Below, one piece after another: positions 6,700 to 58,539 of a stretch of 64,000 nucleotides of DNA. The position numbers and the translations under genes were made by a program. Source of the stretch: an uncultured Candidatus Saccharibacteria bacterium (lineage in GTDB: Bacteria > Patescibacteriota > Minisyncoccia > Phycocordibacterales > UBA5272); contig CAYWEW010000005.1 of NCBI GenBank assembly GCA_964457775.1, positions 5,398 through 69,397 on the forward strand, in the 5' to 3' direction. Each line of letters starts with the position of its first letter. Within the stretch, counting starts at the first letter, position 1. The notes beneath the pieces were generated by a model. The model searched no databases, was not told the origin of the DNA, and was given only the letters and a program-made list of their open reading frames with translations.

Positions 6700-7326
6700 A
6701 TGATGCAAATTACTACTTCGCCTAGAAAGGCAAAAGAAACCAAAAAAGATGGATTTATACCTGCTGTTTATTATGGAACACATGCAGCTTCTACTCCTAT
6801 TTTTGTTGATATGATTGAATTTACAAAGGTTTTATCATCAGCCGGTGAATCAAGTTCTGTAACTCTAAAAACTGAACATGGAAATGAAACAGCTATGATT
6901 CAAGATGTACAAGTTCACCCAGTTAAAGGCCAAGTTATACATGTTGATTTTTATGTTCTTGAAAAAGGTCAAAAAGTTCACGTTAAGACACCTATAGTAT
7001 TCGTTGGTGAGTCAGCTGCAGTAAAAGCAGGAGGAGTGCTTGTAAAAGTTTTACAAGAACTTTCTGTTGAAGGAGACTCAACAAAACTTCCTCATGAGTT
7101 TTCTGTTGATATTTCTGCACTCGTTGATTCAAAGAGTGTAATACATGTGAGTGATGTTAAGCTTCCAGTAGGTGTTGAACTTTATCACATTAATGAAACT
7201 GATGTGGTGGCATCAATTTCTGCTGCGCAAGAATTAACAGAAGATGTTCCTGTTGCTACAGACTTAAGTACGATTGAGGTGGAGGCTAAAGGTAAGAAAG
7301 AAACAGAAGAGGCACCTGCAGAATAA
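6700..7326 (+). CDS. rplY: Ribosomal protein L25 / general stress protein Ctc
   Basis: KDGFIPAVYYG motif and length. The track start at 6682 overlaps a TGTATAAT -10, so the start is more likely the ATG at 6700 or 6703 (leaderless). Confidence 0.8.
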   Translation: MMQITTSPRKAKETKKDGFIPAVYYGTHAASTPIFVDMIEFTKVLSSAGESSSVTLKTEHGNETAMIQDVQVHPVKGQVIHVDFYVLEKGQKVHVKTPIVFVGESAAVKAGGVLVKVLQELSVEGDSTKLPHEFSVDISALVDSKSVIHVSDVKLPVGVELYHINETDVVASISAAQELTEDVPVATDLSTIEVEAKGKKETEEAPAE

Positions 7327-13286: not shown

Positions 13287-13362
13287 GCCGCTTTAGCTCA
13301 GTTGGTAGAGCAACGGTTTTGTAAACCGTAGGTCCACAGTTCGAATCTGTGAAGCGGCTCCA
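13287..13362 (+). tRNA. tRNA-Thr (anticodon UGU)
   Basis: Acceptor GCCGCTT/AAGCGGC, D-arm GCTCAGTTGGTAGAGC, anticodon loop ttTGTaa, T-arm GGTCCACAGTTCGAATCTGTG, CCA encoded. Confidence 0.8.
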
Positions 13363-33727: not shown

Positions 33728-33815
33728 GGAGAGGTGGCAGAGCGGTTTAACGCACTACCTTGGAAAGGTAGCAACTGGGTAACCGGTTCGGGGGTTCGAA
33801 TCCCCCCCTCTCCGC
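33728..33815 (+). tRNA. tRNA-Ser (anticodon GGA), no encoded CCA
   Basis: Acceptor GGAGAGG/CCTCTCC, anticodon loop ttGGAaa, long variable arm, T-arm GGGGGTTCGAATCCCCC. Confidence 0.85.
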
Positions 33816-45580: not shown

Positions 45581-45624
45581 GAATTAAAAGAGCGACACCT
45601 TTCGGTGTCGCTCTTTTATCTTTT

Positions 45625-45960
45625 GTTCTATCTATAAGCCGAATTCTGTCCATGTGGTTACCCACATTGTGTAATCATGTATCTGGGCGATATTTTACAA
45701 TACCGCTCTAGCGACACTCTCATATTGCTATGAGCACGGTCTTGCACACACGTAAGGATTTAGCCGTTTCAATTTTATCTTTCGATAAACATATTCCCGA
45801 AGGAACCCTAGTCTTTCGACATTGGCGTCACTGCTCGCACCTCTATGATTGCTCACGACGGGTGTTACCCGCTACGATCACTAATTTAAAAGTAATGTGT
45901 TCGGACTTTCCTCTCTCGGTGGTAGTATTTCAACCACAAAGAGCGATTACCCAGTAGAAC
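45625..45960 (-). ncRNA. rnpB: RNase P RNA (bacterial type A-like, reduced)
   Basis: Minus strand reads GAGGAAAGTCCGAACAC (P4), GGGTAACACCCG, GGTGCGAGCAGTGACGCC and 3' ACAGAATTCGGCTTATAG (E. coli-like ACAGAACCCGGCTTATCG). P1 is GTTCTAC/ATAGAAC. A terminator hairpin 45587-45620 lies downstream. Confidence 0.75.
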
Positions 45961-46053
45961 AAAAAAATAATACAACATATTTTACAAAAAAGCAAGTATA
46001 GATACAATTCCACGTGCTTTTATCTGCATTTTTTGTTAGTATGGAGGGATATT

Positions 46054-51074: not shown

Positions 51075-51146
51075 TGCCCTCGGCGGGAATCGAACCTACA
51101 ATAACTCCTTAGGACGGAGCAGTTATATCCATTTAACTACGAGGGC
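51075..51146 (-). tRNA. tRNA-Arg (anticodon CCU)
   Basis: Minus strand GCCCTCG ... anticodon loop gtCCTaa ... AGGTTCGATTCC ... CGAGGGCA. One A-C mismatch in the T-stem. Confidence 0.75.
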
Positions 51147-51760: not shown

Positions 51761-51833
51761 GCTTGGATAGCTCAGTTGGTAGAGCGCTTCCCTGAAGAGG
51801 AATAGGTCCCCAGTTCGAGCCTGGGTCCAAGCA
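51761..51833 (+). tRNA. tRNA-Phe (anticodon GAA), no encoded CCA
   Basis: GCTTGGATAGCTCAGTTGGTAGAGC ... loop ctGAAga ... CCCAGTTCGAGCCTGGG TCCAAGC A. Extended -10 TGGTATAAT ends 9 nt upstream. Confidence 0.85.
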
Positions 51834-56886: not shown

Positions 56887-56944
56887 GATGTGTATGTGAT
56901 ATTATAATTGCTATTCTTATATTACTAATAATACTATCATATCT

Positions 56945-57481
56945 ATGCTTACAAAACAGTCAAAGATTTTAAAATCAGGTTCGAAGAAAAATATCGAAAT
57001 TATTACCAAAAAAATTACGAAGAAAAACGTAAAAATGGAAACGCATGCAAAACCATTACCAGACCATCATTTTAAAGTGGTGAAAGTAAAGCGCGGTGTT
57101 GCTGGACTCGGTCTTTTCGCAGGAGAGAATATCAAGAAAGGGGAATTGATTATAGAATATATTGGGAATATTTTAAATAAAGAAGAAGCAGACAAAAAAA
57201 CAACCAGCCAATATCTTTTCGAAGTGACTCGTAATAAAACAATTGACGGAACACCTAGATGGAATGTTGCACGTTATTGTAATCATGCTTGTGAGGAAGC
57301 GGCAAATTCCGAAAGTGAGATTAAGAAAGGGCGTGTGTTCATTAAAGCTATTAAGAATATAAAAGAAGGGGAAGAAATTTGTTATGACTACGGAGAAGAA
57401 TTCGTGAAGGAGCATATTGGTCATCATGGATGCAGATGTGCCGCAAAAAATCATAGTTACGGAGCATTATCTAGTAAGTAG
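56945..57481 (+). CDS. SET-domain protein (lysine methyltransferase-like)
   Basis: GxG region VKRGVAGLGLFAGENIKKGELIIEYIG, conserved Tyr (QYLFEV), NH.C motif (RYCNHACEEAAN), EL..DY motif (EEICYDYG), and a post-SET Cys cluster (HHGCRCA). Confidence 0.8.
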   Translation: MLTKQSKILKSGSKKNIEIITKKITKKNVKMETHAKPLPDHHFKVVKVKRGVAGLGLFAGENIKKGELIIEYIGNILNKEEADKKTTSQYLFEVTRNKTIDGTPRWNVARYCNHACEEAANSESEIKKGRVFIKAIKNIKEGEEICYDYGEEFVKEHIGHHGCRCAAKNHSYGALSSK

Positions 57482-57749
57482 TTAATAAAGATAAATTATA
57501 AATAAATATGATATAAAAAATAGCCATGAAGTGGCTATTTTTTGTTCTTCACTGAAGTCTAAATTTAAAAAAGTATTAATTTATATAGTATAACCAGAAG
57601 CAATAAATTTTACTTAATTTTATGCATTAATGCAAACTCTTCGCATTTGCATTTTACATGAAAAATTAAATTTTTAAATAAAAAAAGTTATCCACATAAT
57701 TAACATTGAAATCTATTGTATGTAGGTGTAGAGATGTAATACTTAATAT

Positions 57750-57800
57750 ATCGAGAGTAATGATTACGGTCGTGATCATAATAATTACTAATACTCTCTG
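57750..57800 (+). promoter_or_regulatory. Imperfect 45-nt palindrome upstream of the KAKK micro-gene promoter
   Basis: cgagagtaatgattacggtcgtgatcataataattactaatactctctg; extended -10 TTGTATAAT at 57803-57811. Confidence 0.4.
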
Positions 57801-57823
57801 ATTTGTATAATAAAAATATTTTT

Positions 57824-57931
57824 ATGGCAGCAAAAAAGAAAGCAGTAAAGAAAGTAGCAAAGAAGGCAACAAAGAAAGTTGCAAAGAAGGCTGCAAAGAA
57901 GACTGCAAAGAAGTCAGCAAAGCGCGCATAG
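57824..57931 (+). CDS. 35-aa Lys/Ala-repeat histone H1-like basic peptide
   Basis: MAAKKKAVKKVAKKATKKVAKKAAKKTAKKSAKRA. Own extended -10 about 13 nt upstream (near-leaderless) and own terminator hairpin (57955-57985) plus T-tract. Not in the ORF track (under 60 aa). Confidence 0.55.
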   Translation: MAAKKKAVKKVAKKATKKVAKKAAKKTAKKSAKRA

Positions 57932-57984
57932 TCGCATTTGTTTCTTCGGAAAAACGTCTCACTCCCATGAGGCGTTTTTCTTTT

Positions 57985-58135
57985 TCTGACCAGAAACTAC
58001 TTCATCTACTTCGTTAGAGAATATTTTTTCTCCATGCGACGTCGAATTAGCAGATTCGGGTCTTGGACCAAAATAGATCTCTTAGTCGAAAAAATATTCT
58101 CTACCTCGTATCTAAAGCAGTTTCTGGCCAGTAAA
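57985..58135. repeat. Nested inverted-repeat element
   Basis: Outer IR ctgaccagaaactacttc / aagcagtttctggccag, inner IR agagaatattttttc / gaaaaaatattctct. Core gaattagcagattcgggtc is related to gaatcagcagattc(g/a) at 34066 and 51682. gaaactacttcatctacttcgtt is related to the 50095-50180 module. Confidence 0.5.
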
Positions 58136-58206
58136 TCATATAGAGTATTTTATGATTACAAAAAACAAAAGAGAGTTACCTAAGGCAACTCTCTTTTCAG
58201 ATGAAT

Positions 58207-58539
58207 TTAAGCCGCAAAAAATTTTGGATGTTCTGCGATTAGTCGAATGATTTGTTTTCGAAGTTTTAAATCGAAAGGAAATGGAAGTCGATAAACTTCA
58301 ACACTAGGATAGAGATCACCGGTGTCTTCGCCGTCTCCTTGTATTTCAACTGTTTCAACTTCAATGTATGCAACGAGCTCCCACTCTTTTGCTTCATTTT
58401 GTTCTGCTGCTACATAGAGTCGTTTTATAACAAAATCATTTTCATCTCCGTGTGATGTATCACCACTTGATTCTTCATAACTTCTGTATTCTGAAAGAAC
58501 AAGGCCGTCAATATAGCGGGTCCCTATATAATTATTCAT
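58207..58539 (-). CDS. Hypothetical acidic protein
   Basis: ORF only. Confidence 0.4.
   Translation of the reverse strand: MNNYIGTRYIDGLVLSEYRSYEESSGDTSHGDENDFVIKRLYVAAEQNEAKEWELVAYIEVETVEIQGDGEDTGDLYPSVEVYRLPFPFDLKLRKQIIRLIAEHPKFFAA

Follow-up and report, generated by a model that had tools for sequence, protein, structure and literature searches.

The locus described here lies in a 64-kb stretch of DNA, hereafter the window, and contains two neighboring genes on the forward strand. The first (56945–57481) encodes a SET-domain protein-lysine methyltransferase of 178 residues, recognized by its Pfam SET domain, by profile matches, and by homologues. The second (57824–57931) is a micro-gene of 35 codons plus stop, an in-frame ORF in 157 loci, which encodes the Lys/Ala-repeat polycation MAAKKKAVKKVAKKATKKVAKKAAKKTAKKSAKRA. 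With the flanking genes, they form the syntenic block valS–SET–peptide–secA. Patescibacteria (CPR bacteria) represent a large share of bacterial diversity, and almost nothing is known about their DNA packaging and gene regulation. A literature search gave no paper joining SET domains with Patescibacteria and nothing on CPR lysine-rich micro-proteins.

The SET gene and its product

The original prediction assigned a SET domain to the first gene, with four signatures in the right order, and both assignments are confirmed. The ORF matches Pfam SET (PF00856) with an E value of 2e-24 and 86.5 bits (cut-off 22.4), over profile positions 1 to 105 of 105, and the signatures are G54-L-G56, Y90, N113-H-A-C116, and E144-I-C-Y147-D-Y149. 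In the alignment of 114 homologues, these motifs, the third extended to R110-Y-C-N113-H114-A-C116, are invariant or at least 90% conserved. The protein is laid out as a basic N-terminal tail (residues 1–37), the SET core, and a post-SET-like element formed by C116 and C163-x-C165-x4-H170. The tail is K-rich, with peptide-like ITKKVAKK stretches and a histone-H3-like xKQSxxLKKGGK segment. The nearest solved relatives are the SET domains of KMT2C, KMT2D, SET1, and MLL1 (profile matches in the PDB, E 1e-20 to 1e-17), and the KMT2-type alignment extends through the CxC, pairing C163-R-C165 with the post-SET Cys pair of KMT2C. Moreover, C163-R-C165-x4-H170 is invariant or nearly so among the 114 homologues, the last ligand being His and not Cys as in the post-SET CxCxxxxC. 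The AlphaFold2 model obtained with these homologues, an alignment of low diversity, has a mean pLDDT of 67, with residues 86–110 and the N-terminal tail poorly modeled, and is too weak for the geometry of a Zn site. The gene product would be a cytoplasmic protein-lysine methyltransferase whose core is KMT2/SET1-like and whose post-SET-like Zn site has His as its last ligand instead of Cys.

Homologues with 58 to 95% identity occur in Paceibacterota/Parcubacteria MAGs. When the same loci are compared, the identity is 58 to 81% for SET, 50 to 90% for ValRS, and 74 to 86% for SecA, and this comparison indicates strong purifying selection on the putative enzyme. The family is confined to one Paceibacteria (CPR) clade, where its rate of evolution is about as low as that of SecA. 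Small single-domain SET proteins are found in other prokaryotes, such as Go1-SET from Methanosarcina, cpnSET/NUE from Chlamydia, and RomA/LegAS4 from Legionella; Go1-SET methylates the endogenous MC1-alpha, and NUE methylates itself at a KK pair that lies outside its SET domain (PMC3980110, PMC2904774). In contrast to these proteins, the family of the window is closest in sequence to the SET plus post-SET of KMT2/SET1. Its basic N-terminal tail is conserved, its gene keeps a fixed chromosomal place between valS and the micro-gene within a single CPR clade, and no secretion signal is evident. It would be an unusually conserved, eukaryote-like (KMT2/SET1-type), free-standing bacterial methyltransferase.

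Among the characterized bacterial SET proteins, most are effectors directed at the host (PMC3980110, PMC2904774), and a secreted enzyme acting on eukaryotic host histones, as NUE, RomA, and LegAS4 do, and unrelated to the peptide, would agree with the eukaryotic H3K4 methyltransferases being its nearest solved relatives, with a weak NCBIfam similarity to LegAS4, and with the attachment of CPR bacteria to other cells. However, no signal peptide or hydrophobic N-terminus is present in the SET sequence, the LegAS4 score is 38 bits, far under the 550-bit cut-off, and SET is as conserved as SecA where ValRS falls to 50% identity, unlike fast-evolving effectors. Also, the known hosts of Patescibacteria are mostly prokaryotes. 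We consider an effector role improbable.

Downstream of the SET stop, a perfect 12-bp hairpin, AAAAAATAGCCA/TGGCTATTTTTT (57515–57543, + strand, an inverted repeat with 100% complementarity), is followed by T-rich sequence. This is the probable terminator of the SET gene, although it falls short of the G+C requirement in the consensus scan. Both SET and valS lack a Shine-Dalgarno sequence.

The Lys/Ala-repeat micro-gene

The predicted Lys/Ala micro-ORF about 340 bp past the SET gene is present. It begins with the ATG at 57824, 342 nt after the SET stop, ends with the TAG at 57929–57931, and is built of seven in-register copies of a 12-nt unit; within the 64-kb window, it is the only K/A-rich ORF. 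The ORF is also conserved in relatives, as had been anticipated, since 157 related loci carry a peptide of 13 to 63 residues, always in frame, together with the flanking signals. This recurrence is, from the comparison of sequences, more than chance. Beyond MAAKKKA, the peptides have no fixed sequence positions.

The pattern of substitution is that of a coding sequence. The frame is open in 134 of 134 unique sequences despite many indels, compared with 45 and 32 for the other two forward frames, and the differences are distributed over the codon positions as 50:66:235. Codon changes are synonymous in 197 cases and nonsynonymous in 92 (68% synonymous). Moreover, Lys is encoded by AAG in 66% of cases (36% in long ORFs) and Ala by GCA in 70% (34% in long ORFs). 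The start context ATGGCAGCA is invariant, and the ORF has no Shine-Dalgarno sequence. One antisense frame is also stop-free in 131 of the 134 sequences; its wobble positions are common with those of the sense frame, it has no start giving at least 25 residues in the window, and the box, the promoter, the ATG context, and the terminator are all sense-oriented. This frame was set aside as a by-product of composition with no start codon in the window, and the antisense ORF at 57822–57968 was rejected because its frame is open in only 26 of 134 sequences.

On the other hand, the compact unit of about 235 nt with its conserved 5' structure, the lack of a Shine-Dalgarno sequence, and the fact that no gene caller has ever called the ORF would fit an untranslated small RNA composed of a 5' hairpin, an A/G-rich repeat body, and a terminator. 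The intact frame, the synonymous changes, the codon bias, and the invariant start context argue against it, and the unit has no match in Rfam. Also, the neighbors valS and SET do without a Shine-Dalgarno sequence as well, and many Parcubacteria have no anti-Shine-Dalgarno (PMC9297842). An untranslated RNA is thereby extremely improbable, and both the coding character and the conservation of the micro-gene are evident in the alignments.

The original prediction held that the gene would be missed by annotation, and this is the case: no gene is called at the micro-ORF on the source contig, and the exact look-up of 10 peptide variants found 10 of 10 absent from a collection of 15 billion proteins. 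A homology search with a 40-residue variant gave 2019 word candidates, none at E ≤ 0.001, and neither Pfam nor NCBIfam has a match for the peptide. For example, Pfam HC2 (PF07382) does not match the 35-residue peptide, and variants of 50 to 100 residues reach 7 to 11 bits against a 40-bit cut-off (E 0.55–6.5). Likewise, no winged-helix globular domain of linker histone H1/H5 is found with Pfam and NCBIfam, the whole product being the 35-residue repeat. The predicted "H1-like" character then refers to composition, because no family is recovered for the peptide with HMMER. Although at least 157 loci have kept the micro-gene, it is absent from protein databases; its control region has a distinctive layout, in which DnaA box, promoter, and GGUCG hairpin precede the ORF and the terminator follows it. 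Its product would be a candidate abundant nucleic-acid-coating protein, systematically missed by genome annotation.

Transcription signals and the 5'UTR hairpin

A sigma-70-type promoter, P1 (57716–57743, + strand), is proposed from cross-locus conservation. It consists of a −35 element TTGTAT (57716–57721), a TG (57735–57736), and a −10 element AATACT (57738–57743) with a 16-nt spacer, and the pattern TTG...TGnnATAnT with a spacer of 16 to 17 nt is kept across loci with and without SET. The transcription start would be near 57750. The assignment relies on conservation between species, as a simple consensus scan flagged neither of the two candidate promoters and the −35 element of P1 matches only 3 of 6 positions. 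The second candidate is the extended −10 element of the original prediction, TGTATAAT (57804–57811, + strand), located 12 nt before the ATG. The element is present as described; however, it is kept only in the main SET-bearing clade, being replaced by a small hairpin in loci L047–L053 and absent from the loci without SET, and the better-conserved P1 lies about 70 nt further upstream. It could serve as a second promoter, from which a near-leaderless mRNA would arise, or belong to an A/U-rich start region without Shine-Dalgarno sequence.

Upstream of P1, AGTTATCCACA (57686–57696, + strand) includes a perfect match to the canonical DnaA box TTATCCACA at 57688–57696, the only perfect one in the 64-kb window. 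The box is invariant in 47 of 47 genome loci and present in 65 of 99 metagenome loci ascertained by the peptide, and the gap between its end and the TTG of the −35 element is 18 to 19 nt in 97 of 102 loci. An origin of replication was considered and rejected: the perfect box is single, one-mismatch boxes are at chance level (27 found, 23.5 expected), and there is no GC-skew switch near 57.7 kb. The skew is positive over nearly the whole window, apart from four 2-kb bins that are slightly negative, one of them at 54–56 kb over valS. DnaA would bind at the predicted box and possibly regulate the micro-gene, although a single box could be bound by another factor. CPR bacteria would here offer a concrete case in which DnaA possibly serves as a transcription factor. 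Also, a palindrome specific to the SET-bearing clade, AATGCAAAC..TTC..TTTGCATT (57629–57653, without assigned strand), is located 35, 45, or 56 nt upstream of the box. It can form a hairpin that is found in 44 of 62 loci with SET and in 1 of 48 without it, and its arms co-vary in three loci (L010, L032, and L037).

Between P1 and the ATG lies the 46-nt palindrome GAGAG...CTCTC (57753–57798, + strand), which was predicted as an operator-like site. The palindrome itself is there; nonetheless, it is better read as an RNA hairpin of the plus strand than as an operator, since the better-conserved P1 sits upstream and places it inside the 5'UTR, and its arms show covariation. The stem-loop has an outer stem GAGAG/CUCUC, an inner stem of 7 to 8 bp, and a GGUC loop, with a minimum free energy of −18.5 kcal/mol (z −3.05). 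Across loci, 91.5% of the pair cells are paired, compared with 26 to 55% when the partners are slid, and 16 cells, at 4 pairs, are changed on both sides (4.0 ± 1.7 in shuffles, 0 of 500 reaching this number). The six tabulated pairs include 38 G·U cells and 2 A·C cells, which points to an RNA of the plus strand. Moreover, GGTC[GC] is found in the 5'UTR of 126 of 151 loci and in 2.6% of shuffles. These data give moderate support for a cis-regulatory RNA element in the 5'UTR, since they come from one clade and the outer stem is invariant.

The hairpin is single copy in the 64-kb window. A class-A covariance model recovers the window copy and its close relatives and gives only marginal matches in the loci without SET, so homology of the fold across clades is only a possibility. 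A generic test for flanking stems (6.4–6.7 bp, 5.2–5.5 bp in shuffles) is uninformative in such AT-rich sequence. A search of Rfam 15 with the 5'UTR and the whole unit gave nothing at the gathering threshold, with chance-level matches only at E up to 10. Among these, RsmY (E 6.6) was discarded as chance, the repeat having no GGA motifs. Also discarded was a reading of TGATCA...TGATCA as GATC/Dam sites, because across loci the pairing is kept and GATC is not (GACC/GGTC, GATG/CATC, and TGATT in the window). The element would be a new 5'UTR RNA motif.

Downstream of the ORF, a hairpin at 57948–57981 with a 14-bp stem that includes 5 G–C pairs is followed by the T-run TTTTTC (57948–57986, + strand, consensus scan match), in agreement with the prediction that the micro-gene has its own terminator. 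A hairpin of −7 kcal/mol or lower with a T-run within 100 nt of the stop is present in 143 of 148 loci (median −16 kcal/mol), compared with 11% of random windows from the same loci. From promoter to terminator the unit measures about 235 nt, and by its predicted signals the micro-gene is a self-contained, autonomous transcription unit.

Gene order and possible roles of the peptide

All 47 genome loci that carry this SET family and extend far enough downstream have the peptide gene after SET on the same strand, with 0.9 to 3.8 kb inserted between both genes in 9 of them; the linkage of valS to SET is equally tight. However, when the loci are found through the peptide and have at least 1.6 kb of upstream DNA, SET is present in 11 of 56 and missing in 45 of 56, and hmmsearch finds no distant SET in these loci lacking an adjacent one. 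The synteny of SET and the peptide in relatives is then observed from the side of SET and in the minority of cases from the side of the peptide. SecA identity to that of the window is about 66 to 86% in SET-bearing loci and about 43 to 66% in SET-less loci, which fits a single clade, hence one event in evolution, and the adjacency looks inherited from one ancestral gene order. Since a genome scan for the SET family of the window found it nowhere besides these loci, most of the peptide-bearing lineages appear to manage without it. The peptide is widespread in the ultra-small CPR bacteria, usually upstream of secA, and SET occurs in one subclade.

In the loci found through the peptide, secA is just downstream in 43 of 66, with a median of 154 nt from the peptide stop to its start. 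This proximity, the terminator between both genes in nearly all loci, and the dominance of one amino acid in the ORF recall SecM-type or attenuator leaders, where a short ORF directly upstream of secA is followed by a hairpin, and the micro-ORF could be a cis-acting leader peptide in which stalling or Lys-tRNA sensing controls terminator read-through. Nonetheless, the product is a pure K/A repeat of highly variable length, with no signal sequence, hydrophobic segment, or arrest motif, and the preference for AAG over AAA avoids slippery A-runs. Moreover, the unit has its own promoter and strong terminators with no competing anti-terminator found, proteins of 85 to 100 residues occupy the same place in some loci, about one-third of the loci have no downstream secA, and in the window the micro-gene and secA have an opposite-strand gene and a second terminator between them. 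A leader function seems very improbable.

Our preferred explanation, which we hold to be probable as a whole, is that SET and the micro-gene are two separate neighboring genes and not an operon, and that the micro-gene encodes an independent, possibly DnaA-regulated, nucleic-acid-binding polycation. The product, of about 3.6 kDa and probably disordered, would coat and neutralize a polyanion nonspecifically, like the histone H1 C-terminal tail, chlamydial Hc2, and the KPAA/PAKKA tails. DnaA bound about 55 to 62 nt upstream of the start site would tune transcription, and the 5' hairpin would tune mRNA stability or translation. Binding to nucleic acids is suggested by the composition, by a length continuum reaching the 85- to 100-residue K/A/P proteins that occupy the micro-gene position in L089, L104, L148, and L159, and by the fusion of a K/A tail to a SWIB domain in L058. 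Chromosomal DNA is favored as the target because of the DnaA box, rRNA or mRNA being also possible.

The C-terminal domain of linker histone H1 is of low complexity with AKKA/KKAAK-type sequence, disordered, and charge-neutralizing, as the peptide would be. However, the peptide has neither the winged-helix domain nor a Pfam linker-histone match, so the likeness is compositional and homology is not claimed. Among bacterial proteins, Hc1 and Hc2 (hctB) are also Lys/Ala-rich polycations with short repeats whose number varies between strains (PMC2848022), and they are thought to compact DNA (PMC2904774). In contrast, Hc2 has 165 to 237 residues, the peptide 13 to 63, with no match to Pfam HC2 and a CPR lineage. 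Lys/Ala(/Pro) repeats that bind polyanions are present too in the KPAA/PAKKA regions of AlgP, PhaF, mycobacterial Ku, and actinobacterial TopA, which bind polyphosphate and DNA (PMC9239181), mRNA with activation of translation (PMC12818456), and DNA (PMC3553676, PMC5714199). K/A-repeat regions binding DNA, RNA, or polyphosphate are known from Hc2 (PMC2848022), AlgP (PMC9239181), PhaF (PMC12818456), and Ku (PMC3553676). Nonetheless, the KPAA/PAKKA regions are appendages of folded proteins, whereas in the micro-gene the repeat is the whole protein. As for its regulation, we know of no counterpart in Hc1/Hc2 systems for the DnaA-box promoter or the GGUCG 5'UTR element.

The target could instead be the ribosome, since uS19 bears an Ala/Lys-rich tail of about 25 residues specifically in Parcubacteria, of which many lack the anti-Shine-Dalgarno (PMC9297842). 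The peptide would then be an RNA- or ribosome-associated polycation (a tiny ribosomal protein, an rRNA-neutralizing tail acting in trans, or a modulator of translation) and not a nucleoid protein; the disordered KPAA region of PhaF offers a precedent by binding mRNA and activating translation (PMC12818456). The codon bias suggests high expression, and genes of autoregulated ribosomal proteins typically have a conserved, structured 5'UTR. Ribosomal proteins that are basic and very small, such as bS22 and bL37, are known from cryo-electron microscopy. On the other hand, a length of 13 to 63 and up to 100 residues without fixed positions past MAAKKKA is unlike proteins that fill a defined rRNA pocket, a DnaA box is no known feature of ribosomal-protein promoters, and the micro-gene lies outside any ribosomal-protein cluster. 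This makes a ribosomal role rather unlikely, and a nucleic-acid-coating polycation is preferred.

The original prediction took the adjacency of both genes as suggesting an enzyme–substrate pair. This does not follow, because valS is equally linked, the adjacency belongs to one clade, and SET is missing from 45 of 56 peptide loci; the order of the genes is no proof of an enzyme–substrate relationship, and conserved adjacency inside a single clade is here no evidence of one. SET could nonetheless methylate the lysines of the peptide and tune its charge and binding, as a minimal chromatin-like writer/substrate pair. In line with this, the link between SET and the downstream same-strand peptide gene holds in all 47 SET loci and persists where secA has moved away (L031, L036, L041, L045, and L047–L053), and the K-rich SET tail with its ITKKVAKK stretches would put the enzyme on the same polyanion. 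Also, methylation of endogenous chromatin proteins is reported for prokaryotic SET proteins, namely of MC1-alpha by Go1-SET and of Hc1 by cpnSET (PMC3980110). However, the SET loci form one clade and the adjacency counts as a single event; valS is linked to SET just as tightly, promoters and terminators are separate, the inserts in 9 of 47 loci part the genes, most peptide loci have no SET within reach, and the family appears nowhere else in the genome scan. Moreover, the statement of the prediction that a chlamydial SET protein methylates Hc1/Hc2 is contested: cpnSET is reported to methylate Hc1 (PMC3980110), whereas the NUE of C. trachomatis, a secreted effector, did not methylate full-length Hc1 (PMC2904774).

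Methylation of the peptide by SET is plausible but unlikely, and the adjacency of 100% inside the SET clade leaves room for a functional link of low probability. A broader proposal, quite unlikely and offered as speculation, is a Paceibacteria chromatin-like module, in which a DnaA-controlled, H1-tail-like micro-protein of 20 to 60 residues would coat the nucleoid group-wide and one clade would have recruited a KMT2/SET1-like SET, tethered by its K-rich tail and methylating the micro-protein and/or itself. If true, bacteria would have a writer/substrate pair in which a histone-tail-like protein is methylated on lysine. Identifying the SET substrate, be it the peptide, the enzyme itself, or a translation factor, would help with the old question of the role of SET in prokaryotes. 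Finally, and as a lead only, removal of Met would leave a peptide starting with AAKKKAVKK, with lysines 4 and 9 placed as in histone H3.

Coding character and product of the micro-gene

The SET-domain protein-lysine methyltransferase gene (SET) and the Lys/Ala-repeat micro-gene are both real, and the latter is the more notable of the two, being unannotated, widespread in Paceibacteria and equipped with a conserved DnaA-box promoter, a new 5'UTR motif and its own terminator. As had been claimed, the 35-codon micro-ORF (57824-57931, + strand; ATG at 57824, stop at 57929-57931) is found 342 nt 3' of SET. It is made up of seven in-register 12-nt units encoding MAAKKKAVKKVAKKATKKVAKKAAKKTAKKSAKRA, is the sole K/A-rich ORF within the 64-kb window and is not preceded by a Shine-Dalgarno sequence. 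The expectation that annotation would miss it was also borne out: contigs of a large environmental assembly carry an identical SET protein, and no gene is called there at the micro-ORF.

In sequence comparisons, the micro-gene behaves as a coding sequence. The frame starting from the conserved ATGGCAGCA is open in 134/134 unique sequences despite many length changes, and the remaining two + strand frames are open in just 45 and 32 of the 134. For 45 closely related equal-length pairs, the differences at codon positions 1:2:3 are 50:66:235, with 197 synonymous versus 92 non-synonymous codon changes. Moreover, AAG accounts for 66% of the Lys codons and GCA for 70% of the Ala codons in the peptide genes, versus 36% and 34%, respectively, in the long ORFs of the same loci, a bias consistent with selection on translation, including selection against slippery A-runs. 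A single antisense frame is open too (131/134), its wobble positions being common with the sense frame. An antisense gene is rejected, since this openness is a by-product of composition, no start codon in that frame yields at least 25 aa within the window and all the regulatory signals face the other way.

Membership of the Hc2 or H1 families is likewise rejected because the peptide matches no family, with Pfam HC2 reaching only 7-11 bits on the longest variants; the Lys/Ala composition is common to them, but the peptide stands outside both families and the likeness is compositional only. It is a minimal stand-alone bacterial H1-like polycation, new as such. The peptide is between 13 and 63 aa long, and K/A/P versions of 85-100 aa occupy the same place in some loci (L089, L104, L148 and L159, K/A/P/V-rich from the same MAAKKKA start); secA is directly next in L089, L104 and L159, and L148 ends too soon to tell. 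At an unrelated locus that also has the MAAKKKA start (L058; match at 7076-7105, - strand), a 139-aa K/A tail is fused to a SWIB/MDM2 domain (Pfam E 1.5e-31). The variable length, the longer versions and the tail on the SWIB domain argue that the peptide is a non-specific polycation, and not one fitted to a defined pocket or an arrest peptide.

Lys/Ala repeats bind DNA in Hc2 (PMC2848022), Ku (PMC3553676) and TopA (PMC5714199), polyphosphate and the nucleoid in AlgP (PMC9239181) and mRNA in PhaF (PMC12818456). Because a DnaA box lies upstream of the micro-gene, the interpretation tilts toward a DNA or replication-linked role. On the other hand, a ribosomal or RNA role stays a candidate in view of the Ala/Lys-rich tail of uS19 in Parcubacteria (PMC9297842).

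Gene order around SET and the peptide gene

Two peptide patterns specific to the SET family of the window, run against species-representative genomes, gave 51 loci, 6 of which were left out because the sequence ends <340 nt past SET; the remaining 45, the window and one identical copy make up the 47 loci counted. In agreement with the synteny expected among relatives, all 47 have an in-frame M(A/V/P)(A/V)KK...K/A ORF of 20-50 aa downstream of SET on the same strand. The block valS(-)/SET(+)/peptide(+)/secA(+) is conserved as a whole in these SET-family loci, and valS neighbours SET as faithfully as the peptide gene does. Also, SET and the peptide gene carry separate signals, and the gap between them is 0.9-3.8 kb in 9/47 loci.

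Reverse ascertainment, scanning metagenome contigs for the peptide start TATGGCAGCAAARAARAARGCNGYNAARAA, gave 119 loci, with a micro-peptide of 13-63 aa in 110. SET lies upstream in only 11 of the 56 with at least 1.6 kb of upstream DNA, and secA downstream in 43 of the 66 with at least 1.2 kb of downstream DNA, at a median of 154 nt past the peptide stop. A profile search detects no distant SET in the SET-less peptide loci, whose upstream neighbours differ (MurB-like, Ddl-like and others, by N-terminal sequence resemblance alone). The identity of SecA to that of the window is ~66-86% in SET-bearing loci versus ~43-66% in SET-less ones, so that SET would mark one clade and its adjacency to the peptide gene would be a single historical event. 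Of the two, the peptide gene is the more ancient and the more widely distributed, and it is usually partnered by secA.

The original prediction had taken the adjacency of SET and peptide to suggest an enzyme-substrate pair, a step that is not supported given the equal linkage of valS and the scarcity of SET among peptide loci. Since the adjacency mirrors the gene order inherited by one clade, such a pair is a minority hypothesis and rather unlikely. Published precedents for a SET enzyme acting on an H1-like protein point both ways: Hc1 was methylated by cpnSET and MC1-alpha by Go1-SET (PMC3980110), but full-length Hc1 was not methylated by NUE (PMC2904774).

Signals flanking the micro-gene

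The only perfect DnaA box in the 64 kb, AGTTATCCACA (57686-57696, + strand), is invariant in the 47 genome loci, and a perfect TTATCCACA occurs within 180 nt upstream of the peptide in 65/99 peptide-ascertained metagenome loci. The box is followed after 18-19 nt by a -35 TTG in 97/102 loci, with a -10 of type TGnnATAnT another 16-17 nt on. Transcription probably starts near 57750, so that the box would span about -62 to -54, a location at which activation would be possible. An origin of replication is rejected because GC skew does not switch around 57.7 kb and imperfect boxes are as frequent as chance predicts; the site is a promoter element. The extended -10 predicted earlier, TGTATAAT (57804-57811, + strand), is present 12 nt 5' of the ATG, but its conservation does not extend beyond the main SET clade, and it may thus be a second promoter or a mere part of an A/U-rich start region.

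The palindrome predicted as an operator is also present (57753-57798, 46 nt), although its features point elsewhere. On the inferred + strand transcript, GAGAG (57753-57757) pairs with CUCUC (57794-57798) and an inner stem of 7-8 bp closes a GGUC loop (-18.5 kcal/mol, z -3.05). Among 46 sequences, standard pairs fill 91.5% of the pair cells versus 26-55% with slid partners, and changes on both sides affect four pairs in 16 cells (shuffles 4.0 +/- 1.7; 0/500 reach 16). Since the six tabulated pairs hold 38 G.U cells versus only 2 A.C cells, a + strand RNA hairpin would be more likely than a symmetric DNA operator. GATC itself is not conserved in this hairpin (GACC/GGTC, GATG/CATC, TGATT in the window), and SET-less clades keep the GGUCG core in wholly different stems. 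GGTC[GC] appears in 126/151 5'UTRs versus 2.6% of shuffles, and the 3' strand of a stem usually follows it directly. Rfam has no family for the motif, of which the window holds one copy. A fold common to all clades is putative, since the model from the clade of the window fails to recover the 5'UTRs of the others; plausible putative roles are stabilising the 5' end or binding a protein, possibly for autoregulation.

A further hairpin, AATGCAAAC-TC-TTC-G-CA-TTTGCATT (57629-57653), is situated between the probable terminator of SET and the DnaA box in 44/62 SET-bearing loci versus only 1/48 SET-less ones, 35, 45 or 56 nt upstream of the box (a phasing of ~10 nt). Its arms co-vary (L010, L032, L037) with G.T wobbles on the + strand, and the hairpin lacks a T-run on its 3' side. 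A transcription-factor operator is one possible reading, and a hairpin in the 3'UTR of SET is another.

Downstream, the terminator claimed for the micro-gene is a 14-bp hairpin followed by a T-run (57948-57986, + strand). Within 100 nt of the stop, 143/148 loci have both a T-run and a hairpin at least as stable as -7 kcal/mol (median -16 kcal/mol), versus 11% of random windows, and the micro-gene is a self-contained unit even with secA next downstream. In the window, a 110-aa acidic ORF on the - strand (58207-58539) with its own terminator (58167-58197) separates the two; it has no Pfam or NCBIfam match, is missing from all relatives and appears to be a recent insertion. Directly 3' of the micro-gene terminator is an imperfect inverted repeat of 154 nt (57982-58135; as RNA, -47 kcal/mol, z -6.35). 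It is unique in the window and otherwise restricted to identical contigs, save for arms ~76% similar at L012:5001-5127, likewise directly downstream of a peptide gene. A small RNA, a MITE-like insertion and a transcription barrier are all candidate readings of this repeat.

The SET protein and its possible substrates

The assignment of the 178-aa ORF (56945-57481, + strand) as a SET enzyme was confirmed by its match to Pfam SET across the full model (E 2e-24, 86.5 bits, cut-off 22.4). A profile from 28 homologues matches the solved KMT2C/MLL3 SET domain at E 1.3e-20, and also KMT2D, yeast SET1 and MLL1, the alignment to solved domains covering the C-terminal CxC. Across 114 homologues there is little or no variation at the GxG, Tyr, NHxC and YDY positions, or at C116, C163, C165 and H170, a post-SET-like CxCxxxxH. 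Homologues 58-95% identical belong to Paceibacterota, Parcubacteria and Nomurabacteria MAGs, all CPR, and the protein is a newly found member among prokaryotic SET enzymes.

SET keeps 58-81% identity among loci where ValRS drops to 50%, which indicates strong purifying selection. Together with the lack of a secretion signal in the protein and a conserved basic N-terminal tail holding xKQSxILKKGxK and peptide-like ITKKVAKK stretches, this favours a conserved substrate of the cell itself, located on a polyanion, over an effector role directed at a host. Candidate substrates are the K/A peptide, the N-terminal tail itself or, given the linkage of valS to SET, a translation component; in eukaryotes, ribosomal proteins and eEF1A are substrates of SET enzymes.

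The N-terminus (residues 1-37; 56945-57055) reads MLTKQSKILKSGSKK, with the family consensus xKQSKILKKGGK and K4/Q5/S6/L9/K10/G12 at least 90% conserved. This tail presumably resembles that of histone H3 (ARTKQTARKSTGGK), which we take as a lead only; the closest solved SET domains are those of H3K4 methyltransferases, and the distance of the H3-like segment from the N-terminus varies among homologues. Residues 1-37 may serve as a pseudo-substrate or as a site of automethylation; in NUE, a KK pair lying outside the SET domain is automethylated (PMC2904774).

The divergent valS and SET are separated by a 58-nt spacer (56887-56944) with a TATAAT-like element near each start. A Shine-Dalgarno sequence is absent before both genes, and this arrangement fits leaderless or SD-independent initiation in this lineage; the anti-SD is missing in many Parcubacteria (PMC9297842). 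Other RNA genes in the window are a class A bacterial RNase P RNA (45619-45962, - strand; 107 bits versus a gathering score of 100) and four tRNA genes (13287-13359, 33728-33814, 51075-51146 on the - strand, and 51761-51833).
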